Shown here piece after piece: positions 9,797 to 27,229 of a stretch of 64,000 nucleotides of DNA (the first letter of the stretch is position 1; each line of letters begins with the position of its first letter). Under the pieces are notes generated by a model. That model was not told the origin of the DNA. It did not search any database and saw nothing but the letters and a program-made list of their open reading frames with translations. Origin of the DNA: an uncultured Actinomycetota bacterium (GTDB lineage: Bacteria > Actinomycetota > Actinomycetes > JAFAQI01); NCBI GenBank assembly GCA_963770565.1, contig CAVYQE010000001.1, forward strand, positions 1,408,001-1,472,000, given 5' to 3'. Made by a program: the position numbers and the translations under genes.

Positions 9797-11134
9797 TCAG
9801 CCGGTCAGCTTCTCGAGCAGGGCGGCCCGGCGGGCCGGCTTGCCAGACTTCGCCTCGGCACGGTCGGCCGAGGCCATCAAGGCGGTCATCCCACGCACCC
9901 CCAGCCAGCGCAGCGGCTCCGGCTCCCAGCGCCGCCAGCGGTGGCCGACCCACGGCAGATGGGTGCGGTCGGTGTCCCGCTTGAGGATGAGATCGGCCAG
10001 GGTCCGGCCGGCGAGCGCGGTGCAGGCCACTCCGTCACCGACGTAGCCGCCGGCCCAGCCGATGCCGGACTCGCGATCGAGGGTGACCGACGGCATGAAG
10101 TCGCGCGGCACGCCGATGACCCCGCCCCAGCGGTGCGTGATCCTGGCCTGGGCGACCTGGGGGAGCAGTTCGCGCAGGGTCTCCTCGAGCCCGGCGTAGG
10201 TCTCGTCGTGTCCGACCGAACCGCCGGTGCGAGAGCCGAACCGGTACGGCGCACCGCGACCGCCGAAGACGATCCGGCCGTCAGCGGTGCGCTGGGCATA
10301 GATGATCAGGTGCCGCTCGTCGTTGAGCGTCTCCCGCTGGCGCCAGCCGATCCGTTCCCAGGTTTCGGCATCGAGCGGCTCGGTGGCGATGATCAGCGAC
10401 CAGATCGGCGCGAGCAGCCGATGGGTGGCGGGGATGTCGGCGGTGTATCCCTCGGTCGCCCGGATCACGGTGTCGGCCCGCAGGGTGCCGTGCGGGGTCA
10501 CGACCCGGCCGGGATGCACCGCGGTCGCTGCAGTCCGCTCGTAGATCGTCGCGCCCTGGCGCTCGACCACCCGGGCCAGGCCCCGGACCAGGCGGCCGGG
10601 ATGGATCGCCGCACAGTGCCTGGTGAAGCTTGCGCCATCGACATCGGACGCCGCGATCCGCTCGCGCGCCGCTGCGGCATCCAGCCAGCTGCCACCGTGA
10701 CCGTCGCCGCCCGCGCGCAGCCGGGTGACCTGGGCCGGGCCGCGGGCCAGAGACAGCGTGCCGCCCTTGGCATAGTGCGCGTCGACGTCGTGGTCGCGGC
10801 ACCAGTCCCCGACGTCGTCGACGGTGCGCTGGAGGGTGGCCTCCATCCGCCGGGCCGCGTCCGCGCCGTGCTCGCGCGCGATCCGTGACCACGGCACCGG
10901 GAACAGTGCAGAGCACCAGCCGCCGTTGCGCCCGGAGGCTCCCCAGCCCGCGATCTCGCGCTCGACTACCGCAACGCGCAGGCTCGGCTCGTGCCGCAGC
11001 AGGTGGTGGGCGGTCCACAGCCCGGTGAAGCCGGCCCCGACGATCGCGACGTCGACGCCGACGTTGCCCGGCAGGGCGGGACGGGCGGTCAGGTCGTCCT
11101 CACAGGTCTCGAGCCACAGCGATGGGAGCGTCAT
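9797..11134 (-). CDS. FAD-dependent amine oxidoreductase (PuuB/DadA-like)
   Basis: SLW..., [40 protein letters not shown]. Confidence 0.85.
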
Positions 11135-11769
11135 CCGCGGTGCCACCTCGTGACGTACGACGGGGGTTTGCCGCCGAGTTCGGTGATCGGCCGGCCCGGG
11201 CGCAGCCGCAGCGGGACCACCCCGGCCCACGGGGACCAGCCCTCGTCGTCCGCGACGAACTCGGGCGGGCTGTCGCTGACCTTCACCGACCACTCCTCGA
11301 TCGGGACTGCGATCACCGAGGTCGCGGCCAGCTCGCGGCGGTTCGGCGGCCGGGCGTCTGCCCGCCGACCGGGCAGCAGCGCGTCGGCGAGCAGGTCGAG
11401 CGCGCGCCGCTTGTCGTCGCCGCGCAGCGCCGTGCCCTGACCGAGCACGACCGCGCTGCGGTAGTGCATCGAGGACTCGAACAGCGACGTCGCGACCACC
11501 AGGCCGTCGAGCAGAGTGACCGTCACGCAAGCGGGGTGCCCACCGCCGAGGGCTCGAAACAACCGGCTACCGGTCGATCCGTGCAGGAGGACCCGGTCGC
11601 CGTCGCGGGCGTACCCGCAAGGCATCACGAACGGCTGCGCGCCGACCGCGATGCCGACGTGCGCCACGATGCCCGCGTCGAGGACCTCGTTGAGGACGGC
11701 CCGGTCGGACACAGCCTTCTCCGGCAGCCGCCGGATCCGGGTGCGGGCCGAGCCTAGGTGGGTCGCCAT
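11131..11769 (-). CDS. Pyridoxamine 5'-phosphate oxidase-like flavin-binding protein
   Basis: LDAGIVAHVG, LLHGSTGSR, VTLLDGLV...S.F.SSMHYRSAVV. Confidence 0.85.
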   Translation of the reverse strand: MATHLGSARTRIRRLPEKAVSDRAVLNEVLDAGIVAHVGIAVGAQPFVMPCGYARDGDRVLLHGSTGSRLFRALGGGHPACVTVTLLDGLVVATSLFESSMHYRSAVVLGQGTALRGDDKRRALDLLADALLPGRRADARPPNRRELAATSVIAVPIEEWSVKVSDSPPEFVADDEGWSPWAGVVPLRLRPGRPITELGGKPPSYVTRWHRG

Positions 11770-11771
11770 GC

Positions 11772-13151
11772 TTACAGGTGCGACCAGGCCTCGGTCAGCA
11801 CGCTACGGAGCACCTGCTCGATCTCGTCGAACTGGGTCTGGTCGCAGGTCAGTGGCGGTGAGATCTGGATGACCGGGTCGCCCCGGTCGTCGGCCCGGCA
11901 GACCAGGCCGGCCTCGAACAACGCCCCGGACAAGAACCCGCGCAGCAGCCGCTCGCTCTCGTCGTCGTCGAAGGTCTCCTTGGTGGTCTTGTCCTTGACC
12001 AGCTCGATCCCGTAGAAGTAGCCGTCGCCGCGCACGTCACCGACGATCGGCAGGTCGCAGAGCCGTTCGAGGGTGGCCCGGAACTCGGGCTCGTTGGTGC
12101 GCACGTGCTCGAGCAGGCCCTCGCGCTCGAAGATGTCGAGGTTGGCCAGCGCGATCGCACACGACACCGGGTGGCCGGCAAAGGTGATGCCGTGCAGGAA
12201 GGCCGAATCGCCGTGCAGGAACGGCTCGATCAGCTTGTCGGAGGCGAGCATCGCGCCGATCGGGGCGTAGCCGCTGCTCATTCCCTTGGCCACGGTGATG
12301 ATGTCCGGCTGGTAGCCGTAGCGCTCCGCGCCGAACCAGTAGCCGAGCCGGCCGAAAGCGCAGATCACCTCGTCGCTGACCAGGAGTACGCCGTAGCGGT
12401 CGCAGATCTCGCGTACCTGGGCGAAGTAGCCGGGCGGCGGCGTGAAACAACCGCCGGAGTTCTGAACCGGCTCCAGGAAGACCGCCGCGACCGACTCCGG
12501 GCCCTCGCGCAGGATCGCCCGCTCGATCTCGTCGGCGGCCCACTGGCCGAAGCGGGCCAGGTCCTCGCCGTGCTCCGGGGCGCGATAGAAGTTCGTGTTC
12601 GGCACGCGCACGCTGCCCGGGACGAGCGGCTCGAAGATGTTCTTGATCGCGGTGACGCCGTTGATCGAAAGCGCGCCCATCGTGGTGCCGTGGTAGGCGA
12701 TGTCGCGGCTGATCACCTTGTAGCGACCCGGCTCGCCCATCTGGCGGAAATACTGCCGAGCGAGCTTCCAGGCGCTTTCGACCGCTTCGGACCCGCCGGT
12801 GGTGAAGAAGACCCGGTTGATGTCGCCGGGGGCGTAGGAGGCCAGCCGCTCGGCCAACTCGATCGCCGAGGGGTGCGCGTAGGACCACAGCGGGAAGTAG
12901 GCCAGCTGCGCGGCCTGCTTCGCCGACGCGTCCGCCATCTCCTGCCGGCCGTGCCCGGCCTGGACCACGAACAGCCCGGACAGGCCGTCGAGATAGCGCT
13001 TGCCCTTAGAGTCCCAGACGTAGGCGCCTTCGCCACGCTCGATGATCGGGATGTCGTGGTCGGCGTACGTCGACATCCGGGTGAAGTGCATCCACAGGTG
13101 CCGGCGAGCGGCCTCCTGAAGGTGCGTGGCGTCTTGCTGTGAACTACTCAT
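11772..13151 (-). CDS. Class III aminotransferase, putrescine/polyamine:pyruvate type
   Basis: HLWMHFT, FTTGGSEAVE, YHGTT, EPVQNSGG, DEVICAFGRLG, AKG..SGY.P. Confidence 0.88.
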   Translation of the reverse strand: MSSSQQDATHLQEAARRHLWMHFTRMSTYADHDIPIIERGEGAYVWDSKGKRYLDGLSGLFVVQAGHGRQEMADASAKQAAQLAYFPLWSYAHPSAIELAERLASYAPGDINRVFFTTGGSEAVESAWKLARQYFRQMGEPGRYKVISRDIAYHGTTMGALSINGVTAIKNIFEPLVPGSVRVPNTNFYRAPEHGEDLARFGQWAADEIERAILREGPESVAAVFLEPVQNSGGCFTPPPGYFAQVREICDRYGVLLVSDEVICAFGRLGYWFGAERYGYQPDIITVAKGMSSGYAPIGAMLASDKLIEPFLHGDSAFLHGITFAGHPVSCAIALANLDIFEREGLLEHVRTNEPEFRATLERLCDLPIVGDVRGDGYFYGIELVKDKTTKETFDDDESERLLRGFLSGALFEAGLVCRADDRGDPVIQISPPLTCDQTQFDEIEQVLRSVLTEAWSHL

Positions 13152-13609
13152 CGGGTGCCCCAGGTGTAGGTCTGTTTGGCCAGTTTGAGGTAGACGAATG
13201 TCTCCGAGTCGCGAACTCCGGGTACGGCGCGAATCGCGTTGTTGAGCAGTGCGAGCAGGTGCTGGTCGTCGTTGCAGACGACCTCCACGAGCAGGTCGAA
13301 CGAGCCCGCCGTGACCACCACGTAGTCGACCTCGGGCAGGGCGGCCAGCTTGTCGGCCACCTCGGCCAGGTCGCCGTCGGCGCGCACCCCGACCATGGCC
13401 TGGCGGGTGAAGCCGAGCTGCATCGGGTCGGTCACCGCGACGATCTGCATGACCCCGGAGTCGAGCAGTCGTTGGACGCGTTGGCGGACGGCGGCCTCGG
13501 ACAAACCGACCGCGGTCGCGATCGCGGCGTACGAGCGACGGCCGTCAGCCTGCAACTGCTCGATGATGGCGCGGTTCGCGCTGTCGAGGGTGGTCGTGGT
13601 CGCAGGCAC
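13148..13609 (-). CDS. Lrp/AsnC-family transcriptional regulator
   Basis: LD...RAIIEQLQADGRRSYA.IA..VGLSEAAVRQRV; G.FDL. Confidence 0.92.
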   Translation of the reverse strand: MPATTTTLDSANRAIIEQLQADGRRSYAAIATAVGLSEAAVRQRVQRLLDSGVMQIVAVTDPMQLGFTRQAMVGVRADGDLAEVADKLAALPEVDYVVVTAGSFDLLVEVVCNDDQHLLALLNNAIRAVPGVRDSETFVYLKLAKQTYTWGTR

Positions 13610-13640
13610 CCCTCGACTGTGCCGTTGCGGCGCGACCATT

Positions 13641-13688
13641 GCAAGTGAATCCGTCGATAATTCGGGGTATTGCTGCGGATTCCCTTGC
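13641..13688. promoter_or_regulatory. Inverted repeat in the divergent Lrp / aldehyde dehydrogenase promoter region (candidate operator)
   Basis: GCAAGTGAATCCG (13641-13653) and CGGATTCCCTTGC (13676-13688) are 12/13 complementary around a more AT-rich spacer. Confidence 0.55.
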
Positions 13689-13720
13689 TGAAGGCTCCGT
13701 CCGATGCCAGAGTCAGCCCT

Positions 13721-15151
13721 ATGGGTCTTCAGGCGGCACACAACGTCATCGGCGGCGAGGAGTCAGGTGCGGTCGACGGTCGCACGAGCGAAATCATCGA
13801 CCCGACGACCGGCGAGACCTATGCCACCGCCCCGGTCAGCGGTCCGGCCGATGTCGATCGTGCGTTCGCAGCGGCCGAGATTGGCTTCGAGACCTGGCGG
13901 GAGGCGACCCCGGCGGAGCGCCAGGTCGCGCTGCTGCGGCTCGCCGACGCGGTCGAGGCGCGGGCCGAGGAGCTCATCGACATCGAGTGCACGAACACCG
14001 GCAAGCCGCGCGGCCTGACCAGGGCCGAGGAGATCCCTCCGGCGGTCGACCAGATCCGGTTCTTCGCCGGTGCGGCGCGGATGCTCGAGGGTCGCTCCGC
14101 GGGGGAGTACATGGCCGGCCACACCTCGATGATCCGCCGCGAACCGGTCGGGGTCTGCGCGCAGGTCACGCCGTGGAACTACCCGATGATGATGGCGGTG
14201 TGGAAGTTCGCGCCGGCGATCGCCGCGGGCAACGCGATCGTGCTCAAGCCGTCGGACACCACCCCGATGTCCACGGTCTGGATGGCCGACCTCGCGCAGG
14301 AGTTCCTGCCGCCGGGGGTCTTCAACGTGATCTGCGGCGACCGCGACACCGGTCGGGAGCTGGTTGCCCACAAGACCCCGCGGATGGTGTCGATCACCGG
14401 CAGCGTGCGGGCCGGTCGCGAGGTCGCGGAAGCGGCTGCGGGCGACCTCAAGCGGGTCCACCTCGAGCTCGGCGGCAAGGCACCGTGCATCATCTTCGAC
14501 GATGCCGACGTCGAGGCCGCGGCGGCCGGGATCGCCATGGCCGGCTACTTCAACGCCGGCCAGGACTGTACGGCGGCCACCCGGGTGCTCGCTGGTCCGC
14601 GGGTCCACGACGACTTCCTCGACGCGCTGACCGAGGCGGCCAAGGGCCAGACCACCGGCGGGCACGACATCGAGGCCGACTACGGCCCGCTCAACAACGC
14701 CAACCAGCTCGCCCGGGTCAGCGGTTTCATCGAGCGGAAGCCCGCGCACGCCTCGGTCCGCACCGGCGGCGAACGGGTCGGGGACAAGGGGTACTTCTAC
14801 GCGCCGACCGTCGTCGCCGGGCTGGAGCAGGACGACGAGATGATCCAGGACGAGATCTTCGGCCCGGTCATCACGGTTCAGAAGTTCGCCGCGGAGGAAC
14901 AAGCGCTGGAGTGGGCGAACGGCGTGGAGTACGGTCTCGCGTCGTCGGTGTGGACCAAGGATCACGGTAGGGCGATGCGGATGGCGAAACGGCTCGACTT
15001 CGGCTGCGTGTGGATCAACACCCACATCCCGTTCGTGTCCGAGATGCCGCACGGTGGGTTCAAACACTCCGGCTACGGCAAGGATCTGTCCATGTACGGC
15101 TTCGAGGACTACACCCGGGTCAAGCACGTGATGAGCAGCCTCGGCGAGTGA
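13721..15151 (+). CDS. Gamma-aminobutyraldehyde dehydrogenase
   Basis: [33 protein letters not shown]; [19 protein letters not shown] is typical of the PatD/Prr subfamily. Confidence 0.9.
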
Positions 15152-16317
15152 GCGTCAACGTGAGCGAGGCCCGGCGCGAGGACCCACCGCGCTCGGCAGA
15201 TGTCGCCATCGAGCTGGTGGGTGTCGCCAAGCAGTTCGTCAGCCAGAAAGACACCGTCGCGGCGGTCGACCACATCGACCTGACGATCGAGGAGGGCGAG
15301 TTCTTCTCCTTGCTCGGCCCGAGCGGCTGTGGCAAGACGACGACGCTGCGAATGATCGCCGGGTTCGAGGAGCCGACCAGCGGCAAGGTCCTGCTCTACG
15401 GCACCGATGTGACCTCGGCGCCGCCTAACCACCGCGACGTCAACATGGTGTTCCAGAACTACGCGTTGTTCCCGCACATGACGGTGGCCGAGAACATTGC
15501 CTTCGGTTTGGAGCGCAAGGGCGTCGGCAAGGGCGAGGTCCGGCGCCGGGTGTCGGAGTCGCTCGACCTGGTGGAGCTCACCGGCCGCGACCGCCGGCGC
15601 CCGAAGGAGCTCTCGGGCGGCCAGCAGCAGCGGGTCGCCCTGGCCCGCGCGCTGATCAACCGGCCGCGTGCCCTGCTGCTCGACGAGCCACTCGGCGCGC
15701 TCGACCTGAAGCTGCGGCAGAACATGCAGATCGAGCTCAAGCGGATCCAGCGCGAGGTCGGGATCACCTTCGTTTACGTGACCCACGACCAGAGCGAGGC
15801 GTTGACGATGTCGGACCGGCTCGCGGTCATGAGGGACGGCAAGATCGAGCAGCTCGGGCCGCCGCGCGAGCTCTACGAGCAGCCGACCACCCGGTTCGTG
15901 GCCGGGTTCATCGGGACCTCCAACATCGTGCACGGCACGGTCGAGTCGATCTCCGACGACGGCGCGGTCATGCGCACCTCCGCGACCGAATCGGCCGTCG
16001 TACCGCTGCGCTCGCCGGTGGCAGTCGGCCAGGCGGTGGCGGCCACGGTCCGGCCGGAGAAGATGACGATGTCGATCGACCGGCCGAATCTCGGTTGCGC
16101 GCTGCGCGCCCGGATCAGCGAGGTCGTCTATCTCGGTACGTCGACGAACTACAACGTCGCGACCTCGTTGGGGGACCTGGTCGTCTACCAGCTCAACGCG
16201 GGCGACGACCTGATCGCGCCACAGCGCGGCGACGAGGTCTGGGTCGGCTGGACGCCGCAGCACTCCTACCAGCTGTTCGATGCAGAGCCCACCGAGGAGG
16301 CCCGCGATGACGAGTGA
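15148..16317 (+). CDS. potA: Polyamine ABC transporter ATP-binding protein (PotA-like)
   Basis: [28 protein letters not shown]-terminal TOBE region. Confidence 0.85.
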
Positions 16318-17551
16318 ACCCACGCACAGCCCGCTGCGACTGGGGCGGCGCGACCTGCTGCGCTACGCCGGCATGGGGGCGGGTCTCGCGACGCTGGCCG
16401 CCTGCGGGGTCAGCGGCGAGGGCAAGAAGCAGGTCACCGGCTCGACGCTCGACCAGCAGATCAAGGCGTTCTGGGCCGGCAAGAAGCAGACCGGCCAGGT
16501 CAACTGGGCGCAGTGGCCGCTCTACATCGACGTCGGGAAGAACAAGGGCGACCACCCCTCGATCGACCAGTTCACCGCGGCTACCGGCATCAAGGTCAAC
16601 TACAGCGAGCCGATCCAGGACGACGACACCTTCTTCGCGAAGGTGCAGCCGACGTTGTCCGCCGGGCAGTACTCCGGCTACGACATCGCGGTCATCACGA
16701 ACGGGATCGACTTCGACAAGTTCACCGAGCTCGGGTTGTTCGTGCCGCTGGACCACTCGTACCTGATCAACTACGAGAAGTACGCCGGCTCCACCTACAA
16801 GCACTCGGCCTACGACCCGGGCAACGTCTACAGCGTCCCCTGGCAGTCCGGGATCACCGGGATCGCTTACAACACCAAGAAGGTGCCGAAGCCGCTGACC
16901 AGTTTCTTCGACCTGTGGAATCCGGCCCTCAAAGGCAAGGTCGGGATGTTCGCCGACAACGAAGACCTGCCGACGCCGGTCCTGGTGGCGATGTTCGGCG
17001 ACCCGCAGAAGACCGGCCCGACCCAGTGGCGGCAGGCGGCGGCGAAGCTGACCCAGCAGCGCAAGGCCGGCATCGTGCGCAAGTACTACCAGCAGGACTA
17101 CATCGGCGCGTTGAGCACCGGTGACATCTGGGCCTGCCAGGCGTGGTCGGGCGACATCTTCCAGGCGTTGGAGTCCGGCGCGAAGGACCTCGTGTTCGTG
17201 ATCCCGTCCGAAGGCGCGGTGTTGTGGACCGACAACATGGTCCTGCTGAAGAACATCAAGAACCCGGTGTCGTCGATGAAGCTGATCGACTGGTACTACC
17301 AGCCGAAGATCGCCGCTGAGGTCGCGGAGTACGTCAACTACATCACGCCGGTGCCCGCCGCCCAGGCGGTCGTCAAGTCCGATGCGCAGAAGGCGACCGG
17401 GTCCAACCGGGCCGCTCTCTCCTCGATTGCGAAGAGCCCTCTGGTCTTCCCGACCCCCGCCGACTACAGCAAGCTCTATCGCTACCGCACGCTGACCAAC
17501 ACCGAGCTCACCACCTGGAACGAGATCTTCGAACCGATCTATCAATCATGA
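16307..17551 (+). CDS. potD: Polyamine ABC transporter substrate-binding lipoprotein (PotD-like, Tat-exported)
   Basis: GRRDLL Tat motif, LAAC lipobox, W..YID, VPWQSGITG, AWSGD, W.DNM. Confidence 0.85.
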   Translation: MTSEPTHSPLRLGRRDLLRYAGMGAGLATLAACGVSGEGKKQVTGSTLDQQIKAFWAGKKQTGQVNWAQWPLYIDVGKNKGDHPSIDQFTAATGIKVNYSEPIQDDDTFFAKVQPTLSAGQYSGYDIAVITNGIDFDKFTELGLFVPLDHSYLINYEKYAGSTYKHSAYDPGNVYSVPWQSGITGIAYNTKKVPKPLTSFFDLWNPALKGKVGMFADNEDLPTPVLVAMFGDPQKTGPTQWRQAAAKLTQQRKAGIVRKYYQQDYIGALSTGDIWACQAWSGDIFQALESGAKDLVFVIPSEGAVLWTDNMVLLKNIKNPVSSMKLIDWYYQPKIAAEVAEYVNYITPVPAAQAVVKSDAQKATGSNRAALSSIAKSPLVFPTPADYSKLYRYRTLTNTELTTWNEIFEPIYQS

Positions 17552-18414
17552 TTCGACGGCTTCGATCGGCGAGCGGGCCGTACCTGGCCGTGCTGCCGGG
17601 TGGACTGTGGTTGGCGATCTTCTTCGTCCTGCCGCTGTTCGTGATGGTGTCGCTGTCGGTGCAGACCGGAAACCTCATCACCGGCTTCCAGCAGACATTC
17701 CATTTCGCCAACTACTCGAACATGCTCTCGCTGTATCACGAGCAGCTGCTGCGGTCCTTGTGGTACGGCGTGATCGCCACCGTGCTCTGCGTGATGCTGG
17801 CGTATCCGATGGCGTACTGGATCGCGTTCTTCGGTGGCCGCAACAAGTCGACGTACCTGTTCCTGGTACTGCTGCCGTTCTTCGTCACCTTCGTGCTCCG
17901 CACGGTGGCGTGGCAGTTCCTCCTGGGCGACCAGGGTCTCGTGCTGAGCTGGCTGAAGGACACCGGCATCGTGTCGCAGGACTTCCACGTGCTGGCCACC
18001 GCGACCGCGGTAATCGCCGGACTGGTCTACAACTACCTGCCGTTCATGCTGTTGCCGATCTATGTCGCGCTCGAACGGATCGACCCGAGCCTGCTCGAAG
18101 CGGCCGGAGACCTGTACGCGACCCGCCGGCAGACCTTCCTGCGGATCGTGTTCCCCCTGACCATTCCGGGGATCTTCGCCGGCGTGCTGCTGACCTTCGT
18201 GCCGGTCGTGTCCGACTACGTCAACGCATCGATCCTCGGCGGCACCGGTCAGACCATGATCGGCAACATCATCCAGACCCTCTACCTGACCAACAGCGAC
18301 TATCCGAACGCGTCCGCGTTGTCGATCGTGCTGATGGGGATCCTGATGATCGGGATCTTCGTCTACGCGCGCGCACTCGGCACCCGCGACCTGCTCGATG
18401 CGGCGGCCGGATGA
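17548..18414 (+). CDS. potB: Polyamine ABC transporter permease (PotB-like)
   Basis: YNYLPFMLLPIY..LERID.SLLEAA.DL EAA loop. Confidence 0.85.
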   Translation: MIRRLRSASGPYLAVLPGGLWLAIFFVLPLFVMVSLSVQTGNLITGFQQTFHFANYSNMLSLYHEQLLRSLWYGVIATVLCVMLAYPMAYWIAFFGGRNKSTYLFLVLLPFFVTFVLRTVAWQFLLGDQGLVLSWLKDTGIVSQDFHVLATATAVIAGLVYNYLPFMLLPIYVALERIDPSLLEAAGDLYATRRQTFLRIVFPLTIPGIFAGVLLTFVPVVSDYVNASILGGTGQTMIGNIIQTLYLTNSDYPNASALSIVLMGILMIGIFVYARALGTRDLLDAAAG

Positions 18415-19214
18415 GCACCGCCACGAATGCCGCGGCCGGCCGGGTCGGCAGCCGCATCATGCAGGTCTACACCTGGCTGATCATCCTCTGGCTGATGCTG
18501 CCGATCTTCGTGATCATCGCCTTCGGCTTCAACAACACCAAGGGGAAGTTCAACTACACCTGGCAGGGTGTCACCCTGCACTGGTACCGCCACCTGTTCG
18601 ACATTCCCGACCTCACCAACGCGCTGATCAACTCGCTCACCATCGCGGCGATCGTGACCGTGATCTCCGGCATCCTCGGCACCGGGATGGGCTTCGCCCT
18701 GGGCCGCTGGAAGTTCCGCGGCACCGTGATCACCGAGCTGACGCTGTTCGCCAACATCGCCGCGCCGGAGATCACGCTGGCGACCGCCCTGCTGTCACTG
18801 TTCATCACCGCCAACGTCGCCCGCGGCTACTGGACGATCGTCATCGCACAAGTGATGTTCGACATCGCCTACGTCGCGGTGACGGTGCGGGCCCGGATGG
18901 CCGGGTACGACGTCCATCTGGAGGAGGCCGCGCGCGACCTCGGCGCCGGACCGCTGACCACCTTCCGGCTGATCACCTTGCCGTTGCTGCTGCCGGGCAT
19001 CGTCGCGGGTTGCCTGCTGGCCTTCGCGCTGTCCATCGACGACTTCGTGATCACGCAGTTCAACGCCGGCCAGACGCTGACCTTCCCGTTGTGGGTGTTC
19101 GGCGCCACCCGGTTGGGTGTGCCGCCACAGGTCAACGTGATGGGTACCTTGATCTTCGTGGGCGGCGTACTGATCGCGATCTCGAGCGTCCTGCTGTCGC
19201 GTCGACGGACCTAG
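18411..19214 (+). CDS. potC: Polyamine ABC transporter permease (PotC-like)
   Basis: LEEAARDLGA, F.LSIDDFVIT, PPQVN. Confidence 0.85.
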   Translation: MSTATNAAAGRVGSRIMQVYTWLIILWLMLPIFVIIAFGFNNTKGKFNYTWQGVTLHWYRHLFDIPDLTNALINSLTIAAIVTVISGILGTGMGFALGRWKFRGTVITELTLFANIAAPEITLATALLSLFITANVARGYWTIVIAQVMFDIAYVAVTVRARMAGYDVHLEEAARDLGAGPLTTFRLITLPLLLPGIVAGCLLAFALSIDDFVITQFNAGQTLTFPLWVFGATRLGVPPQVNVMGTLIFVGGVLIAISSVLLSRRRT

Positions 19215-19220
19215 CCGGCA

Positions 19221-20592
19221 ATGGTGAGCTACTGGCTCGATCGCGATCGAGGTGCGGCATCGCCGCACCGGTCACCGTTGAAGGGCGACCAACAGGCCGA
19301 CATCGCCATCATCGGCGGCGGTTTCACCGGGTTGTGGACCGCGATCGAGCTGCTCGAGCGCGCGCAGCCGCTGCGGGTGGTGATCTGTGAGGCCGACGTC
19401 GTGGGGTACGGCGCCTCCGGGCGCAACGGCGGCTTCCTCGACCCGTCGCTCACGCACGGCCTGCTGAACGGGATCCGGCACTTCCCCGACGAGATCGCGC
19501 ATCTCGACGTGCTCGGGGTAGAGAACTACGGCCGGATGTGCAAGGCGTTCGACAACTACGGGATCGACGCCGACTTCGAACCGGTCGGCAACATCGAGGT
19601 GGCGACCCGGGCGCACCAGCTGCCGGATCTGGCCGAGTGGGCCGAGACCGAACAGCAGTACGGGCATCGGGCCGAGGTGCTCGACCAGGCCCAGGCCAGG
19701 GCCCGGCTGAACTCACCGGCCGTGCTCGGCGGGATTCGCCGACCGGATGCCGGCGGCGTGCTCGACCCGGTCAAGCTCTGCCACGGGCTGGCGGCGGCCG
19801 CTGAAGGGCTGAGCGCGGTCATCCACGAGGGCACCCCGGTCACGGCGATCGAGCGGGCCGGGTCGGGGGTCCGGTTGCGCACCCGCGAACGGCACGTTGC
19901 GCTGCGAGCAAGCCGTGCTCGCCACCAACGCCTACAGCGGCCGGGTCCTGCGCCGGACCCGCCGGCACTTCGTGCCGGTCTACGACTACGTCCTGGTCTC
20001 CGACCCGCTCACCGAGGATCAGCGGGCCGCGATCGGCTGGTCCGGTCGCGAGGGGATGTCGGACTCCGGCCACCAGTTCCACTACTTCCGGCTCACCGCG
20101 GACGACCGGATCCTGTGGGGCGGTTACGACGCGGTCTACTACCCGGGCGGACGGGTGGGCCCGCGCTACGACCACCGGCCGGCGACGTACGCGACCCTCG
20201 AGCACAACTTTGCGGCGATGTTCCCGCAGCTGGCTGACCTGAAGTTCCCCTACCGGTGGGGCGGACCGATCGCCACCACGAGTCGGTTCACCCCGGTGTT
20301 CGGGACCGCGATGGGCGGCCGGATCGGCTACGCGCTCGGCTACACCGGGCTGGGTGTCGCGACCACCTGCTTCGCGGCCCGGATCCTCGCCGACATGTTG
20401 TTCGATCCCGGCTCGGACCTGTTGCAGCTGGACTACGTGCGCCGGGCACCGTTTCCGTTCCCGCCCGAGCCGTTGCGGTCCGCGGTGGTCGCGATGACGC
20501 GTCGGGAGATCGCCCGCTCCGACAACCGTGAGGGGCGGCGCGGGCTGTGGTTGCGGATGCTCGACCGGTTCGGGATCGGCTTCGACTCATGA
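19221..20592 (+). CDS. FAD-dependent amine oxidoreductase (PuuB-like), split by a +1 frameshift near 19888
   Basis: [24 protein letters not shown] in the first frame; LATNAY, FHYFRLT.D.RILWGG, GYTGLGV, FGIGFDS in the second. Confidence 0.82.
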
Positions 20593-20605
20593 ACTGCTGT
20601 CGACC

Positions 20606-21898
20606 GTGGCGACCTTCCTGTTCTTTCCCGAGGCCGCGTTCGGTCCGACGAACAACTGCGTCGGGATCGGCAACGTCCTCCAACAACGCGGGCATCGGGT
20701 CGTGTTCGTGGTCGAGGAGTCCTTCGCCGGCACCCTCGCGGCGCGCGGCTTCGAGGAGCGGCTGGTCCAGCTGGCGCCGCCGCCCGAGACGCCGCAGGCG
20801 CCGGGACAGTTCTGGAAGGACTTCGTCCGCGACACCTCGCCGATCTTCCGCCGGCCGACGATCGAGGCGCTGGCCGGCTTCGTTCAGCCCACCTTCCAGG
20901 CACTGTGCGACGGCGCGAGGTACGTCGACCAGCGGCTCGCCGAGGTGCTCGACGAGGTCGACCCCGACGTCGTGATCGAGGACAACGTGGTGTCGTTCCC
21001 GGCCATCCTCGCGCGCCGGAAGCCCTGGGTCCGGATCATGTCGTGCAACCCGCTCGAGCTGCCCGACCCGGACCTGCCTCCGGTCTTCTCCGGCTACCCG
21101 ACCGACGACCGCCGCGACTGGGCCGGGTTCCGCGCCGAGGCCGAGCAGGTGCTCGGCCCGCTGCACGCCGAGTTCAACCAGGCCTGCCTCGACCGGGGTG
21201 CGCCCGCGCTGCCGCCCGGTGAGTTCATCCACTCCTCGGCCTGGCTGAATCTCGGGCTGTATCCCTCGGAGCTCGACTACGTGCGCTCGGAGCCGTTGCC
21301 CAACACCTGGCACACCCTGCCGGCGAACGTGCGCGAGAGCGAGTCCGGCTACGAGATTCCCGACCTCGGCGACCCGTCGCTGCCGCTGGTCTACCTCAGC
21401 CTCGGCTCGCTCGGCAGTGCCGACCTGCCGCTCATGCAGCGGCTGGTCGAGCTGCTCGCGCTGACCCGCTGCCGGGTGATCGTCTCCAAGGGCCCGCTGC
21501 ACGACCAGCTCGAACTGCCGGCCGGCATGAGCGGTGCGGAGTACCTGCCCCAGATCGCGGTGCTGCCGCAGGTCGACGCGGTCATCACCCACGGCGGCAA
21601 CAACACGGTCACCGAGTGCCTCTACTTCGGCAAGCCGATGATCGTGCTTCCGTTGTTCTGGGACCAGTTCGACAACGCCCAGCGGGTCCAGGAGTGCGGG
21701 CTCGGCATCCGGCTTCCGACCTACGACGCAAGCGCCGAGGAGTTCACCGCGGCCCTCGACGACGTGCTCACCGAACCGACCCGGCTGGCCCGGCTGGCCG
21801 CGATCTCGGCCGGCTTGCACGCCACCCCGGGCACCGAGCGGGCCGCCGGCCTGCTCCAGGACCTCGTCCAGCGGGGAGATCGGATGGACCACTCGTGA
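20606..21898 (+). CDS. GT1 (UGT/MGT-type) glycosyltransferase
   Basis: RGHRV, VYLSLGSLGS and UDP-sugar signature YLPQ..VL....AVITHGGNNTVTE.LYFGKP.IVLPLFWDQ. Confidence 0.88.
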   Translation: MATFLFFPEAAFGPTNNCVGIGNVLQQRGHRVVFVVEESFAGTLAARGFEERLVQLAPPPETPQAPGQFWKDFVRDTSPIFRRPTIEALAGFVQPTFQALCDGARYVDQRLAEVLDEVDPDVVIEDNVVSFPAILARRKPWVRIMSCNPLELPDPDLPPVFSGYPTDDRRDWAGFRAEAEQVLGPLHAEFNQACLDRGAPALPPGEFIHSSAWLNLGLYPSELDYVRSEPLPNTWHTLPANVRESESGYEIPDLGDPSLPLVYLSLGSLGSADLPLMQRLVELLALTRCRVIVSKGPLHDQLELPAGMSGAEYLPQIAVLPQVDAVITHGGNNTVTECLYFGKPMIVLPLFWDQFDNAQRVQECGLGIRLPTYDASAEEFTAALDDVLTEPTRLARLAAISAGLHATPGTERAAGLLQDLVQRGDRMDHS

Positions 21899-22854
21899 CC
21901 CGAGCGCCTATGTTCGGCCCGGACGTGACCTTCCTCGGGGTCGATCGCTGCGACCTCGCGGACGGCGCGTCGTTCGCCGGCGCCGACATCGTCATCATCG
22001 GCGCGCCGTTCGACAGCGGGACGTCGTACCGGTCGGGAGCCCGGTTCGGCCCGATGGCGATCCGGTCGACCGACTACCTCCCGCACGACGGCTCGCGGCC
22101 GCACCTGGCCCTCGGCGTCGATCCGCTGAAGGACCTGCGGGTGGTCGATGCCGGCGACATCGAGATGCCGCCGACCGAGACCGAGCTCTCGCTCAACCGG
22201 CTCGAGGACGCGGTCTTTGCGGTGGCCGCGGCCGGCGCGATCCCGGTGATCCTCGGCGGCGACCACACGATCGCCTGGCCGGACATCGCGGGCGTCGCCC
22301 GCCACCTCGGCGCCGGCCGAGTGTCGGTGATCCACTTCGACGCGCACGCCGACACCGGCGAGGAGCAGTGGGGATCGCTCTACGGCCACGGCACGCCGAT
22401 GCGCCGGCTGATCGAGAGCGGGTCGGCGCGCGGCGACCGGTTCCTGCAGGTCGGTCTGCGGGGCTACTGGCCCGAGCCGCCGACGCTGGCCTGGATGGCC
22501 GAGCAGGGCATGCGCTGGTTCGAGATGACCGAGGTGGTCGAGCGCGGCCTCGACGCCTGCCTCGACGAGGCCGAAACGGTCGCCCTCGACGACTGCGACG
22601 GCGTCTTCCTCTCGATCGATGTGGACGTCGTCGACCCCGGGATGGCGCCCGGCACCGGAACCCCCGAGCCGGGCGGCCTGACCGGCCGCCAACTGCTCGA
22701 CGCGGTCCGGCGGCTCGCGATCCGGCTGCCGATCGTCGGGATCGACGTCGTGGAGGTGGCGCCCGCCTATGACAGCGCGGACGTCACCGCCATGCTGGCC
22801 AACCGGGTCGTGCTCGAGGTGCTGTCCGGGATCGCGGTCCGCCGCCGGGGTTAG
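21895..22854 (+). CDS. speB: Agmatinase / ureohydrolase
   Basis: GARFGP, GGDHTI, DAHAD, HGTP, SIDVDVVDP..APGTGTPEPGG. Confidence 0.85.
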   Translation: MTRAPMFGPDVTFLGVDRCDLADGASFAGADIVIIGAPFDSGTSYRSGARFGPMAIRSTDYLPHDGSRPHLALGVDPLKDLRVVDAGDIEMPPTETELSLNRLEDAVFAVAAAGAIPVILGGDHTIAWPDIAGVARHLGAGRVSVIHFDAHADTGEEQWGSLYGHGTPMRRLIESGSARGDRFLQVGLRGYWPEPPTLAWMAEQGMRWFEMTEVVERGLDACLDEAETVALDDCDGVFLSIDVDVVDPGMAPGTGTPEPGGLTGRQLLDAVRRLAIRLPIVGIDVVEVAPAYDSADVTAMLANRVVLEVLSGIAVRRRG

Positions 22855-24563
22855 TGCTCGGCCTCGTCCACGCCCGGGACCGGGGTCGGGCCGGTCGGCT
22901 CGTCGTACTCCGGCGGCACCAGCGGCATGTCGGCCGGGACGTCGTCCCTGCCGATCTGCGGCGGGTAGCCGGCCGGCACGCCGGTGACCTCGGGGACCAG
23001 GGTCGGCGTATGCACGTTCAGCACCTCGCCGCGGAAGAATGCCGGTCGGGCGACTCCGTAGGTCACCATCGCGATCAGGCCGACCAGCCCGGCCCCGACG
23101 ACCAGCACCGCGACACCGCCGACCGCCCAGTGCGGCGGGAACGTCATCTGCCAGCCGGTGAAGCTTGCTTCGGTCGGGTTGTAGTTCTTCGCGTACGGGT
23201 TGAGCCAGTCGAGATAGGCGCTCCAGCCCATCACGATGAACAGGATGACGCCGCCGGTCACCGGGATGATGCCCTGCATGAACAGGTCACGGGTGTTCTT
23301 CGTCAGGGTCTTGCGGTACCACCAGGCGCAGGCGAAACCGGTGGTGCCGTAGTAGAGCGCGATGAAAACGCCGCAGGCGGTCACCGAGTCGCTGATGACC
23401 TGGCCACCCGACAGGTAGTTCATGATCACGTAGAGCACCGCGGAGACCGCGCCCATCGCGACGGTCGAGTTGGTCGGGGTCAGGTGCCGCTTGTGGATCT
23501 TGGCGAACGTGGTCGGGATCGCGCGGTAGACCGCCATCGCCAGCGACGTCCGCGCGGTGGGCAGGATCGTCGTCTGGGTGGACGCCGCGGCCGAGCTCAG
23601 CACCATCAGCAGCAGCAGCTTGACGAAGATGGTGCCGACCGAGGAGTGGCCGAAGACCGCCCGCCCGAGCACGTTGAGCACGTCGTTCGAGTGGTCCGGG
23701 TTGCCGAGACCGATTCCGTGGACTCCGACACCGGCGAAGGACTGCGCAGCCAGGATGACCACCGCGTAGATCGCGAGCAGCAGGACGGTAGAGATCACCG
23801 CCGCGCGCCCAGGGGTGGTCGCCGGGTCCTTGGTCTCCTCGTTGACCGTGACCGCGGTGTCCCAGCCCCAGTAGATGAAGATCATCAGGATCAGGCCGGC
23901 CACGAAGGCCGAGACGCTGGGGATGTTGAACGGGTTGAACCAGCTCCACGACGGGTCGACGTGGGTCGGCCCGGCGTGGCCGGTCCCGACCTTGATCAGG
24001 GCGACCGCGGCGAAGACGATCAGCATGCCGGCCTCGATCGCCAGCAGGCCCTTCTGCATGTTCGCCGAGACCTCGATCCCGCGGTAGCAGATGTAGGTCA
24101 TCAGCGCGATCCAGATCAACCCGACCAGCAGCACCCAGCCACTCGCCGCGTTGTCGCCGATCCCGTTCGCGCCGAACAGCAGGAAGACGTACTGACCGGC
24201 GATCTGGGCCAGGCTGGCCATGATCAGCACGTCGGAGGCGATGATCCCCCAGCCGCCCATGTACCAGCCGGCCCGCGGGCCGAACATCCGGGTGGCCCAG
24301 GTGAAGGTGGTGCCGCAGTCCGGGTCCTGCTTGTTCAGCTCGCTGTAGCCGACCGAGATCATCCACATCGGGATGAAGGCGAGGACCGCCACGACGGCGG
24401 ACTGAAGCCCGACGAAGGCGACGATGAAGCCGAGCGTCGCGGCCAGGCTGTAGGCCGGCGCGGTCGAGGCGACGCCGACGACCACGGTCGACCAGAGGCC
24501 GAGGGTGCCGCCCTTCAGACCCTTGCCGGTCGGCGATTCCGTCGAGGTAACGGTGGCTGACAT
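22851..24563 (-). CDS. APC-family amino acid/polyamine permease
   Basis: About 12 hydrophobic segments; ASTAPAYS, DPDCGTTFTW, FIYWGWD...VNEE. Confidence 0.88.
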   Translation of the reverse strand: MSATVTSTESPTGKGLKGGTLGLWSTVVVGVASTAPAYSLAATLGFIVAFVGLQSAVVAVLAFIPMWMISVGYSELNKQDPDCGTTFTWATRMFGPRAGWYMGGWGIIASDVLIMASLAQIAGQYVFLLFGANGIGDNAASGWVLLVGLIWIALMTYICYRGIEVSANMQKGLLAIEAGMLIVFAAVALIKVGTGHAGPTHVDPSWSWFNPFNIPSVSAFVAGLILMIFIYWGWDTAVTVNEETKDPATTPGRAAVISTVLLLAIYAVVILAAQSFAGVGVHGIGLGNPDHSNDVLNVLGRAVFGHSSVGTIFVKLLLLMVLSSAAASTQTTILPTARTSLAMAVYRAIPTTFAKIHKRHLTPTNSTVAMGAVSAVLYVIMNYLSGGQVISDSVTACGVFIALYYGTTGFACAWWYRKTLTKNTRDLFMQGIIPVTGGVILFIVMGWSAYLDWLNPYAKNYNPTEASFTGWQMTFPPHWAVGGVAVLVVGAGLVGLIAMVTYGVARPAFFRGEVLNVHTPTLVPEVTGVPAGYPPQIGRDDVPADMPLVPPEYDEPTGPTPVPGVDEAEH

Positions 24564-24686
24564 CCCATGCCCTCCCAGAGGTGTAGATGAAGGTTCTCGC
24601 ACTAAACGGGGGTCTTGGCAAGCGTTTCCGTCGAAAAAGGCCCCTCGAACCTCGTATTCCGTCGCGGTCGGCGCTAATGTGCGCCA

Positions 24687-25904
24687 ATGCGAGCAGTCAT
24701 CCTCGGGTCGGGCGGGGTCGGCGCCGCGGCCGCCCGGATCGCCAAGAGCCGCGAGTTCCTCACCTCGGTCGTGCTGGCCGACTACGACGAGGAGCGGGCC
24801 AAGTCCGCCGCGGCGGCGACCGGCGACCCGCGGTTCAGCGGGGTGCAGGTCGACGCCAGCGACGCGAGTGCAGTCGCGGAGCTCCTCAAGACCACGAAGG
24901 CCGACGCGGTCCTGAATGCTTGCGACCCCCGCTTCGTGATGCCGATCTTCGACGCCGCGTTCGAGTCCGGTACGACGTACCTGGACATGGCGATGTCGCT
25001 CTCGCACGCCCATCCCGACGAGCCGTACGCGAAGACCGGCGTGATGCTCGGCGACGAGCAGTTCGCGAGAGCGGCCGAGTGGGAGAGCCGCGGCGTGTTC
25101 GCGCTGGCCGGGATCGGCGTCGAGCCCGGCCTCTCGGACATCTTCGCGCGCTATGCCGCCGACCAGCTGTTCTCCTCGATCGACGAGCTCGGGGTGCGCG
25201 ACGGCGCCAACCTGGTGGTCGAGGGCTACGACTTCGCGCCGACCTTCTCGATCTGGACCACGATCGAGGAGTGCCTGAACCCGCCGGTGATCTGGGAGAA
25301 GGGCCGGGGCTGGTTCACCACGCCGCCGTTCAGCGAGCCGGAGGTCTTCGACTTCCCGGAGGGAATCGGCCCGGTCGAGTGCGTCAACGTCGAGCACGAG
25401 GAAGTGCTCCTGATGCCACGCTGGATCGACGCCAACCGGGTCACCTTCAAGTACGGCCTCGGCGACGAGTTCATCAACGTCCTGCGCACGCTGCACAAGC
25501 TCGGCCTCGACTCGATCAAGCCGGTCAACGTCGGCGGCACCTCGGTGTCACCGCGGGACGTCGTCGCGGCCTGCCTGCCCAACCCGGCGACCCTCGGCGA
25601 CCAGATGCGCGGCCGGACCTGCGCCGGCACGCTCGTCACCGGCACCGGTAAGGACGGCAACCCGCGCGAGGTCTACCTCTACCAGGTGGCGGACAACGAG
25701 ACCTGTATGCGCGAGTGGGGCTCCCAGGCGGTGGTGTGGCAGACCGCGGTCAACCCGATCGTGGCGATGGAGCTGATCGACGCGGGCACCTGGTCGGGTG
25801 CCGGCGTACTCGGGCCGGAAGCGCTCGACCCGCAGCCGTTCCTCGACCTGCTGCCCGACTACGGCGCGCCCTGGGGAATGGTCGAGCGCACCCCGCGCGG
25901 CTAA
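24687..25904 (+). CDS. Saccharopine dehydrogenase-like oxidoreductase (carboxyspermidine dehydrogenase/homospermidine synthase superfamily)
   Basis: GSGGVG Rossmann motif, YLDMA, G.EPG, HEEV. Confidence 0.82.
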   Translation: MRAVILGSGGVGAAAARIAKSREFLTSVVLADYDEERAKSAAAATGDPRFSGVQVDASDASAVAELLKTTKADAVLNACDPRFVMPIFDAAFESGTTYLDMAMSLSHAHPDEPYAKTGVMLGDEQFARAAEWESRGVFALAGIGVEPGLSDIFARYAADQLFSSIDELGVRDGANLVVEGYDFAPTFSIWTTIEECLNPPVIWEKGRGWFTTPPFSEPEVFDFPEGIGPVECVNVEHEEVLLMPRWIDANRVTFKYGLGDEFINVLRTLHKLGLDSIKPVNVGGTSVSPRDVVAACLPNPATLGDQMRGRTCAGTLVTGTGKDGNPREVYLYQVADNETCMREWGSQAVVWQTAVNPIVAMELIDAGTWSGAGVLGPEALDPQPFLDLLPDYGAPWGMVERTPRG

Positions 25905-27229
25905 GCCTGCTGGGCGAAGGCCTTCTCGAGCACGCCGAGCGCGTCGTCGAGGAGCTCGTCGGAGATCACCAGCGGCGGCAGGAAGCGCAGCACGTTGCCG
26001 TAGCTGCCCGCGGTAAGGACCAGGACGCCGTCAGCGTGGCAGGCCGCGGCCACCCGCTTCGTCAGGTCGGCGTCCGGGGTGATCCCGTCGGCCTCGACCA
26101 GCTCGATCGCGATCATCGCGCCCCGGCCGCGCACCTCACCGATGGCGGGGTGGCACGCCGCCAGGGCCTGCAGCCGGGCGGTCATCAGCGTGCCGATCGC
26201 CGTGGCCCGCTCGAGCAGGCCGTCCGCCTCGATCGTCTCGATCGCAGCGAGCGCCGCAGCGCATGACAGCGGGTTGCCACCGAACGTGCCGCCGAGCCCG
26301 CCGGCGTGAACCTGGTCGACCAGCTCGGCGCGCGCGGTGACACCCGCGATCGGCAGGCCGCCGCCGAGACCCTTGGCGGTCGCGACGAGGTCGGGCACGA
26401 CGCCCTCGTGCTCGCAGGCGAACCACGCCCCGGTGCGCGCGATCCCGGTCTGCACCTCGTCGGCGACCAGGAGGGCTCCGTTGTCGTGGCACCAGTTGGC
26501 GAGACCGTTCAGCCAGCCTGGCTCCGGCACGATGAACCCGCCCTCGCCGGCGATCGGCTCGACCACGATGCAGGCGATGTTGGTCGCGCCGACGGTCTTG
26601 TCGAGGAAGGCCAGGGTCGAGGCCAGGTCGCCGGTGCCGCGGAAGGGATAGGAGTACTGCGCCCGGTAGACCTCGGGAGCGAACGGGCCGAAGCCCTGCT
26701 TGTAGGGCATCACCTTGCCGGTGAGGCTCATGCCGAGCAGGGTGCGGCCGTGGAAGCCGTGATCGAACGCCACCACCGCGTCGCGCCCGGTGACGTAGCG
26801 GGCGATCTTGACGGTGTTCTCCACCGCTTCCGCGCCGGAGTTGACCAGGTACGACCGCTTGTCGTGGTCTCCCGGCGTCAAGCTGTTGAGCCGCTCGCAG
26901 ACCTCGATGTAGGACTCGTACGGCGTGACCTGGAAGCAGGTGTGGGTGAACCGCTCGACCTGCTCGGTGACCGCACTGACCACGCGGGGCGCGGCCGAGC
27001 CGACCGTCGTGACCGCGATGCCGGCGGCGAGGTCGATGAAGCGGTTGCCGTCGACGTCCTCGACGATGCCGCCCGAGGCGCGCACCGCGAAGACCGGCAG
27101 CGTGGTGCCGACCGCGGTGGGCAGCGCGGCCGAACGGCGGGCCATCAGCGCCTGCGAGTTCGGGCCGGGCACCGCGGTTGCCAGCCGGCGTTGCTGCGGA
27201 AGGGCCTCGGGCGCTGCGGAGTCAGCCAT
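25901..27229 (-). CDS. gabT: 4-aminobutyrate aminotransferase
   Basis: [48 protein letters not shown]. Confidence 0.92.

Follow-up and report, generated by a model that had tools for sequence, protein, structure and literature searches.

A GT1 glycosyltransferase family without the catalytic histidine recurs beside amine uptake and oxidation genes in Actinomycetes and other bacteria

Introduction

The closest described gene context for the protein studied here comes from Manso et al. (mBio, 2019), who characterised the actinobacterial glucosamine 6-kinases SjGlcNK and MsGlcNK. According to the available portions of that paper (PMC6520443), the kinase gene is tightly associated with genes for a putative SIS isomerase and a putative glycosyltransferase (GT) of the GT1 family, both uncharacterised. 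The trio was linked to secondary metabolism, the GT was proposed to transfer the sugar made by the module, and in S. jiangxiensis the trio lies beside genes for phosphoglucomutase and UDP-sugar pyrophosphorylase; these portions mention neither an absent catalytic histidine nor amine catabolism. Here we analyze a GT1 gene of the window, a stretch of 64,000 nucleotides of contig CAVYQE010000001.1 from an uncultured Actinomycetota bacterium. Judged from gene context, its family seems to correspond to the trio's uncharacterised GT1, and relatives of the GT share with the published case the tight linkage to a kinase and a SIS gene. In contrast, the GT gene of the window lies between a DAO-family oxidoreductase gene and an agmatinase gene, without the kinase. 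The family, whose sole earlier mention was as the orphan companion of a glucosamine kinase, is conserved, lacks the histidine, and is repeatedly tied to genes of amine uptake and oxidation.

Several other systems serve for comparison. The spider-mite UDP-glycosyltransferases (UGTs) UGT203A2 and UGT202A2 share with the GT N-domain elements that are absent from other solved bacterial GT1s. In the available part of PMC10731231, the catalytic dyad of TuUGT202A2 is given as His25-Asp140, and I85 and A86 are described as lining its hydrophobic acceptor pocket. Unlike the GT, the mite enzymes thus retain both residues of the dyad, and their promiscuous flavonoid pocket is hydrophobic at positions where the GT has Arg and Asp/Glu. 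The macrolide GTs (OleD, MGT; TIGR01426) belong to the same GT1 superfamily, have the same C-terminal donor motif and provide the best NCBIfam match; however, TIGR01426 stays under its cut-off, the fold similarity is lower, and their catalytic His is missing in the GT.

Two human GT1 enzymes, UGT1A4 and UGT2B10, conjugate amines, as the GT might (PMC5075577, available part); for UGT1A4, a preference for amines and a proline (Pro40) in the active pocket are described (PMC13058992, likewise in part). They differ from the GT in that they use UDP-glucuronate as donor, have mainly tertiary or heterocyclic amines as substrates, for which deprotonation is not required, and are only distantly related to it. 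Kerdpin et al. reportedly placed Pro40 of UGT1A4 at the catalytic-His position in 2009, with Leu34 of UGT2B10 at the same place. Finally, the gamma-glutamylation route (PuuA-D or PauA-D; GlnA3 of Streptomyces) combines a capping enzyme, a DAO-family oxidase and an aldehyde dehydrogenase (ALDH), to which the gene set of the window may be analogous, except that the latter includes no glutamine-synthetase-like or PuuD-like gene and that the cap would be a sugar.

Results

The GT belongs to a GT1 family with proline at the catalytic-histidine position

The GT gene starts with GTG at 20606, 13 nt past the TGA (20590-20592) of the upstream DAO-family gene, and its own TGA (21896-21898) overlaps the GTG of the agmatinase gene at 21895 in the configuration GTGA. 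The protein begins with (M)ATFLFFPE, and the homologues begin at the identical place. An earlier reading of the DNA, made from the sequence only, had described the gene as operonic, and this holds: with the short gap upstream and the overlap downstream, it lies inside an amine/polyamine catabolic island. The same reading had called the upstream gene an amine oxidase; the distance was right, but the gene encodes a DAO-family FAD-dependent oxidoreductase (PF01266) and not a classical flavin amine oxidase. In two more distant soil/rhizosphere strains, the spacer (20594-20598) has a one-letter loss that is offset by a one-letter gain, so that the 13-nt oxidoreductase-GT spacing is kept.

The Pfam matches UDPGT (4.9e-18), EryCIII-like_C and Glyco_tran_28_C all cover the C-terminal half of the protein, and the score on PF00201 is 65.6 bits (cut-off 19.5). 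The best NCBIfam match is TIGR01426 (MGT subfamily), which with 109.2 remains below its cut-off of 260; NF033129 (Mgt) scores 91 against a cut-off of 700, and the scores on the OleI and Rgt models are far under theirs. By its sequence, the GT is thus a member of GT1 but not a curated MGT, as which its relatives are named in the source annotations ("MGT family glycosyltransferase"). As for the hallmarks of the superfamily, the GT-B fold is seen in the structural model, the C-terminal signature is present, and the N-terminal catalytic His is absent. The UDP-sugar signature (HGGNNTVTE...PLFWDQ.DNAQR) is intact, as the sequence-only reading had stated, and invariant in 17/17 aligned homologues.

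All PDB chains were compared by HMMER with a profile built from these 17 homologues, and the comparison with the G-H-x-N-P motif rests on three solved chains (7lvy, 7vlb and 6pnt). The stretch G13-P14-T15-N16-N17-C18 aligns without gaps to F-G-H-V-N-A-C of mite UGT203A2 (7lvy) and, with equal spacing to (K/R)-G-H, to P-A-Y-G-H-V-N-P of a Bacillus UGT (7vlb). In UGT202A2 (6pnt), His25 lies within a two-residue insertion following the same G-P, and Asp140 of this enzyme aligns with D126 in P-D-V-V-I-E-D-N of the GT. The three alignments bear out the claim that His is replaced by Pro at the same spacing while the partner Asp is kept.

The 17 sequences come from several classes and have a mean column identity of 74%; F-F-P-E, G-P-T-N-N-C, E-D-N, H-G-G-N-N-T-V-T-E and P-L-F-W-D-Q are invariant in all of them. 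Across orthologous stretches from 125 loci, G-P-T is found in 124 and His in none; in the single exception, the alignment sets in within the motif. The variants are GPTNNC (101), GPTNQC (17), GPTGNC (4) and GPTNNL (2), and EDNV is present in 112 of the 125. On these alignments, the His-less G-P-T is a fixed trait of the family, due neither to chance nor to decay. Among 72 aligned near-full-length proteins, the distant representatives (30–42% identity) mostly have G-H at the site, and several other distant lineages have G-P, G-Q or G-A; in this representative alignment, only the His-less relatives have the glutamate of F-F-P-E (E9). A sister His-less family with the motif G-P-A-L-N-S (P0128) was considered and set aside: true orthologues occur in only 2/401 genomes of the phylum, and their neighbourhoods (cyclophilin, M42 peptidase, TetR, GH77, methyltransferase) have no theme.

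The GT family also has a conserved charged motif, G-Q-F-W-K-D-F-(I/V)-R-(D/E)-T, and the conserved pocket motif includes the basic residues K71, R75 and R82. In the HMMER alignment, I85 and A86 of UGT202A2 fall on R75 and D/E76, a mapping that is tentative in this variable region. Since charged residues would thus occupy positions of a hydrophobic pocket, the alignment suggests that the acceptor is a small polar or charged compound rather than a lipophilic aglycone.

A model of the GT computed with AlphaFold2 (AF2) from the 17-row alignment has a mean predicted local distance difference test (pLDDT) value of 85.9 and a predicted template modelling (pTM) score of 0.86; the first N-domain helix begins at residue 16, right after P14-T15. 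In a Foldseek search of the PDB with this model, the top matches were all GT1 enzymes, with mite UGT203A2 (7mco/7lvy) first (template modelling [TM] score 0.90, 31% identity), UGT202A2 entries (6pnt, 8gkn) next (TM 0.81–0.85), and OleD, CalG and YjiC-type bacterial enzymes well behind (TM 0.60–0.72); the identities to the mite enzymes in this comparison were 29–31%. The profile search agreed, with full-length matches to UGT203A2 (1.7e-87) and UGT202A2 (4.7e-73). By sequence and modelled fold, the family is the closest bacterial relative of the horizontally acquired detoxification UGTs of spider mites, and it may stand near the donor lineage of these genes, although the mite enzymes have the His. 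This kinship bears on the origin of these pest genes, whatever the function of the GT. A search of the ESM Atlas with the GT returned generic "glycosyltransferase" clusters only.

The family is widespread and includes the GT of the glucosamine-kinase trio

All 8000 database candidates that were scored had E <= 0.001, and the best 120 were 61–95% identical to the GT. In the genome_contigs collection, relatives are encoded in at least 576 species; the best 80 loci of this collection are mostly from Thermoleophilia, with Dormiibacterota, Actinomycetes and one metagenome-assembled genome (MAG) of Acidobacteriota. The GT is present in 7/61 close relatives of the window's genome (5/35 within its family) and in 69/401 sampled Actinomycetes genomes, distributed over 35/174 genera. 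Thus, the family is large and patchily spread. In a FastTree phylogeny of 125 GTs with 9 outgroups, the clade of the window is placed with Thermoleophilia-type rows, a position from which we derive no gene transfer. Some genomes have two copies, which are in tandem in genomes G338 and G387; these tandem copies form two paired clades in the tree, so that the gene was duplicated before the two genomes diverged. The tandem loci themselves (L150 on G387:C22 and L156 on G338:C1) have none of the usual partner genes nearby.

In many genomes, orthologues of the GT (49–63% identical, with the same G-P-T) lie directly beside genes for a glucosamine-kinase relative and a SIS protein, and one GT tree holds both these trio loci and the amine-island loci. 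In a clustering of neighbours, the kinase relative was the most frequent partner (21/42 loci); its score on the glucosamine-kinase model of NCBIfam is 169 bits (cut-off 550), and the SIS protein resembles the GlmS isomerase/AgaS type. With a kinase query from locus L070, no homologue was found in the window's genome (94.9% complete), and the SIS query gave a single weak, GlmS-like match (C1:715698). Neither gene is present in the window's island, and the family of the window as such is without both. On this evidence, the GT would work in this genome without either partner gene. A ROK gene at 9059-9793 was considered as a stand-in for the absent glucosamine kinase and rejected, as it matches the polyphosphate-glucose phosphotransferase equivalog (348, cut-off 250).

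Related GT genes recur beside Pot importers, DAO-type oxidoreductases and aldehyde dehydrogenases

Neighbours were counted within 10 kb of the GT genes by tblastn (E <= 1e-12, over half of the query), both for the best 80 loci of genome_contigs and for 40 loci from 37 Actinomycetes genomes. The latter had been picked from 79 places for long contigs and genus spread, before their contexts were seen. As background, we used the expected share of random 20-kb windows of the window's genome in which such a gene would be present at equal thresholds (Table 1).

Table 1. Frequency of selected genes beside GT genes in the two sets of loci
Neighbour	Actinomycetes loci	Background	genome_contigs loci
SIS	30/40		10/80
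ALDH	19/40	7%	3/80
PotD	16/40	0.5%	4/80
PotA	14/40	18%	
PotB	13/40	1.8%	9/80
DAO	13/40	1% or less	6/80
Glucosamine-kinase relative	12/40		7/80
Omega-aminotransferase or GabT	11/40	4-5%	4/80
Amidase			7/80
Agmatinase	0/40	1.3%	0/80

The excess of PotD, PotB, DAO and ALDH near the Actinomycetes GTs is large. In the genome_contigs set, only PotB, DAO and PotD exceeded a rough background. The sequence-only reading had suggested collecting homologues with the same motif and looking for an association with pot and speB genes. The first part of this expectation was confirmed: such homologues recur beside Pot-type importers, DAO, aminobutyraldehyde-type ALDH and omega-aminotransferases, in several families of Actinomycetes, in Gaiellales-like MAGs and in one Acidobacteriota MAG, with differing gene orders. 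The speB part failed outside the window's own family, where no agmatinase gene was found within 10 kb at any of the 80 and 40 loci. Nor is the GT family restricted to polyamine loci, since most Thermoleophilia loci are without such a context and the commonest partners are the kinase relative and SIS.

Direct adjacency of GT and DAO was found in three arrangements. In the window's family, DAO precedes the GT; in 5/40 Actinomycetes loci, the order is GT, DAO, ALDH (L144, L151, L153, L161 and L093-like); and in the Thermoleophilia-type loci L028 and L036, the GT is followed by DAO with an 8-nt overlap. Larger orders also recur among Actinomycetes. In 8 loci, PotD-PotB-PotC-PotA and a divergent TetR gene are followed by GT-DAO-ALDH; in 5 loci, a Pot operon is divergent from GT-kinase-SIS; and elsewhere GT-kinase-SIS is followed by DAO, aminotransferase, AsnC and ALDH. 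Several islands of the last type (L124, L136, L140, L141) occupy the same chromosomal site as that of the window, beside pyrH-frr-cdsA-rlmN, and have the DAO/aminotransferase/AsnC/ALDH segment in common with it. Among the genome_contigs loci, the order GT, kinase relative, SIS is found at L056, L070 and L076, and at L045, L053, L031, L062 and L080 the GT is beside a cupin-HTH regulator and a PotA/PotD/PotB set. Dormiibacterota MAGs (L012, L024, L043, L071, L074) have another conserved amine/amide context of the GT: the gene of an amidase-signature enzyme extends 4 nt into the start of the GT gene, and genes for an omega-aminotransferase, a GNAT protein and a metallo-beta-lactamase-fold protein are close by. 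Asparaginase is also among the neighbours.

In the tree, the loci linked to Pot, DAO or ALDH fall into at least 4 separate branches, and Pot transporters flank the GT in the window clade, in a 41-row Actinomycetes clade, in a Gaiellales-like clade and at the Acidobacteriota locus L065. Within the window's own family, the five other carriers (G001, G002, G003, G017, G021) keep the set ALDH-PotADBC-DAO-GT-agmatinase/permease/SacDH/GabT, the G021 copy with many frame changes. Orthologues of the window's PotD (>=76% identity) were found in 7/36 genomes of the family, and the GT in 6 of these 7; the seventh genome is 80% complete. Thus, island and GT travel together within this family.

Discussion

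The anatomy of the gene, the fixed motif, the fold and the recurrent neighbourhood are the observations from which we infer an acceptor atom and its identity, a donor and an order of steps. The GT has an intact donor site and fold, and its family is strongly constrained. Our leading reading, to which we give somewhat less than an even chance on the basis of sequence and model, is that the GT is an active UDP-sugar-dependent GT-B enzyme that N-glycosylates an amine-bearing acceptor. An amine is suggested as acceptor by the recurrent contexts with primary amines or amides, by the three arrangements of GT-DAO adjacency and by the precedent of amine-conjugating GT1s that reportedly lack the His. 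A hexose would be moved from the UDP-sugar to a nitrogen of a small, polar acceptor that is imported by the Pot-type transporter or made in the island (a diamine, polyamine, agmatine or related amino compound), and the carboxylates D126, E125 and E9 would deal with the ammonium proton in place of His. Such a transfer would yield a secondary amine, which the adjacent DAO-type enzyme could oxidise, and the ALDH would oxidise the resulting aldehyde; alternatively, the conjugate might serve detoxification or export. Many DAO-family oxidases indeed take secondary amines (sarcosine, pipecolate, fructosyl-amines).

The sequence-only reading had named polyamines or agmatine as acceptors. An N-glycosyltransferase of this kind is plausible from the sequence, yet we regard a polyamine, diamine or agmatine, when singled out in this way, as a rather unlikely acceptor. 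The same doubt attaches to the full scheme, in which the His-less GT would N-glycosylate an imported di- or polyamine or agmatine-derived putrescine, DAO would oxidise the secondary amine, ALDH would finish the carbon skeleton, and in most Actinomycetes kinase and SIS would recover the sugar-nitrogen part. If correct, such a scheme would introduce a new conjugation chemistry into bacterial polyamine/amine metabolism, that is, a third conjugation route besides acetylation and gamma-glutamylation; it would provide a function for a trio that has been orphan since 2019 and is present, besides Thermoleophilia and Dormiibacterota, in about a sixth of the Actinomycetes genomes sampled, and it would show a GT1 active site operating without its histidine. 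The earlier reading had considered a sugar-based route to amines to be undescribed. In the literature searched, which left most subscription journals outside, we found no polyamine-glycosylating enzyme and no function for the GT of the trio; the GT family itself, on the evidence of the available portions of PMC6520443, had already been noted in 2019.

Several points weigh against amine N-glycosylation. Chemically, the earlier idea that a base would be dispensable with an amine holds only in part. At neutral pH, aliphatic amines carry a proton that must still be removed, so that the loss of His is not simply explained, and N-alkyl glycosylamines are hydrolytically labile, which makes a stable conjugate doubtful. 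The relatives of TIGR03329, a model to which the window's DAO proteins are similar, presumably oxidise free primary amines, and a cap is therefore not obviously required. With respect to gene context, the adjacency to agmatinase is confined to the window's family; most of the 80 genome_contigs loci, which are mainly from Thermoleophilia, have neighbours unrelated to amines; the background was derived from one genome only, and related loci are not independent. SIS (30/40) and the kinase relative (21/42) speak more for an amino sugar than for a polyamine, and the basic residues K71, R75 and R82, judged from the alignment, would suit an anionic or zwitterionic acceptor. Furthermore, the window's genome has four glutamine-synthetase-like loci, one of them beside an ALDH gene at C11:115-120 kb, and a gamma-glutamylation route may coexist in it.

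Some of these points are shared by a serious competitor, to which we give a somewhat lower probability, namely that the GT forms O-glycosides or esters with a polar non-amine nucleophile and belongs to a pathway of amino sugars or amino acids, which would account for its neighbours. Candidate acceptors would be hydroxyl groups, as in glucosamine, glucosamine-6-phosphate or amino alcohols, with E9, E125 or D126 as base, or the carboxylate of an ALDH-produced omega-amino acid, for which no base would be needed. The frequency of SIS and of the glucosamine 6-kinase relative, the most frequent partner, fits this explanation, as do the pocket motif with both acidic and basic residues and the restriction of E9 to the His-less relatives. 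It would also agree with the proposal, in the available portions of the 2019 paper, that the GT transfers a module-made sugar (PMC6520443). However, the window's genome has the GT without a kinase homologue and with only a weak SIS match, the His is retained in other GT1 O-glycosyltransferases, among them the solved enzymes closest to the GT, and the three arrangements of GT-DAO adjacency would be unexplained. Should the acceptor be an ordinary hydroxyl, the finding would reduce to a GT1 subfamily with an unusual base.

It is very unlikely that the GT works mainly in reverse, converting UDP and an imported glycosylated amine or amino-sugar glycoside to a UDP-sugar and a free aglycone for the oxidase and the ALDH. 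GT1 reactions are reversible, as for OleD and the CalG enzymes. The position of the GT beside an importer in catabolic operons would suit this direction, and so would the phosphoglucomutase and UDP-sugar pyrophosphorylase genes beside the trio in S. jiangxiensis (PMC6520443, available part). Nevertheless, hydrolases are the usual solution to such a task, and the loci do not point to a glycosylated substrate. We know of no catabolic GT1 of such a kind.

A macrolide- or xenobiotic-type detoxifying GT (MGT/OleD-like) that resides in the island by chance is even less probable. TIGR01426 as best NCBIfam match, the annotation of the relatives and the promiscuous, detoxifying mite UGTs as closest solved homologues would speak for it, but the MGT score of 109 against 260, the Mgt, OleI and Rgt scores far under their cut-offs, the recurrence of the neighbourhood and the absence of the catalytic His do not. 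In addition, a single, defined polar substrate is favoured by identities of >=60% across classes and by the invariance of the charged pocket motif. Least probable of all is a catalytically dead GT-fold protein that senses or regulates by binding a UDP-sugar or an amine: the loss of the canonical base would permit it, yet all donor-binding motifs and the partner Asp are invariant, the gene is translationally coupled inside enzyme operons, and dedicated regulators (AsnC, TetR, cupin-HTH) are already there.

The amine island of the window

The 17-kb island comprises the genes from 9.8 to 27.2 kb (9797-27229) and is flanked by pyrH-frr-cdsA-rlmN-ppgK and dxr-rseP-ispG-proS (Table 2). The plus-strand run has the order ALDH, PotA, PotD, PotB, PotC, DAO, GT, agmatinase, and from PotB on its genes overlap or are spaced by <=13 nt. 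Agmatinase, ALDH, PotA and GabT score above curated cut-offs, as befits a polyamine/agmatine catabolic operon. Because PotB and PotD are under the equivalog cut-offs, the imported amine is not defined; the PotD/PotF-like gene was the only one found in the genome with this query. The DAO enzymes match best to TIGR03329 and pipecolate-oxidase models, both under the cut-off, and a PDB search with the DAO oxidoreductase of the operon gave no chain at E <= 1e-10.

Table 2. Genes and motifs of the island in the window
Feature	Coordinates	Strand	Basis
Second DAO-family FAD oxidoreductase, 32% identical to that of the operon	9797..11128	-	
Class-III (omega-type) aminotransferase	11772..13151	-	NF005102, 826 (cut-off 574)
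AsnC/Lrp-type regulator, divergent from the operon	13148..13741	-	
Aminobutyraldehyde-type ALDH, first gene of the 8-gene plus-strand run	13670..15151	+	NF010000, 705 (cut-off 615)
PotA-type ABC ATPase; start probably later than 15010	15010..16317	+	TIGR01187, 389.6 (cut-off 355.6)
PotD/PotF-like solute-binding protein	16280..17551	+	below equivalog cut-offs
PotB-like permease	17548..18414	+	below equivalog cut-off
PotC-like permease, in the frame of open reading frame 17607-19214; start probably near 18411	18429..19214	+	
DAO-family FAD-dependent oxidoreductase (PF01266), read in two frames	19221..20592	+	
GT1-family glycosyltransferase, 430 aa, His-less G-P-T-N-N-C family	20606..21898	+	Pfam/NCBIfam, alignment, AF2, Foldseek
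Codons for G13-P14-T15-N16-N17-C18; P14 at the catalytic-His place of GT1 enzymes, helix 16-27 starting just after	20642..20659	+	alignments, AF2
Codons for E125-D126-N127; D126 aligns with Asp140 of the TuUGT202A2 dyad	20978..20986	+	HMMER alignment
Nucleotide-sugar signature, H329-G-G-N-N-T-V-T-E through P-L-F-W-D353-Q354	21590..21667	+	Pfam, alignments
Agmatinase-family ureohydrolase	21895..22854	+	TIGR01230, 193.8 (cut-off 174.3)
APC-family amino acid/amine permease, convergent with the operon	22851..24560	-	
Saccharopine-dehydrogenase-like protein; weak carboxynorspermidine synthase match (188, cut-off 800)	24687..25904	+	
4-Aminobutyrate--2-oxoglutarate transaminase (GabT)	25901..27229	-	NF004714, 688 (cut-off 639)

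The DAO gene upstream of the GT contains a +1 frameshift at about 19882 (19881-19884), where the window has CCC and the 95%-identical relative G003 has CC. Short-read contigs from all three public runs that cover the place (3/3) have one letter fewer there. Moreover, two glutamine-synthetase-like genes of the window's genome (C11:839607-840528 and C2:626627-627402) match Pfam in 3–4 frames each, which suggests that indel errors are frequent in this assembly of 11 contigs. In view of the relative, the short-read contigs and the other broken genes, the frameshift is probably an assembly error and the gene not a pseudogene.

A second amine-type cluster is located elsewhere in the same genome, at C11:93700-120300. 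It includes an aminotransferase gene, PotB-like and PotA-like genes, an ALDH gene (C11:115917) and an intact glutamine-synthetase-like gene (C11:119231), and it may represent a gamma-glutamylation route.

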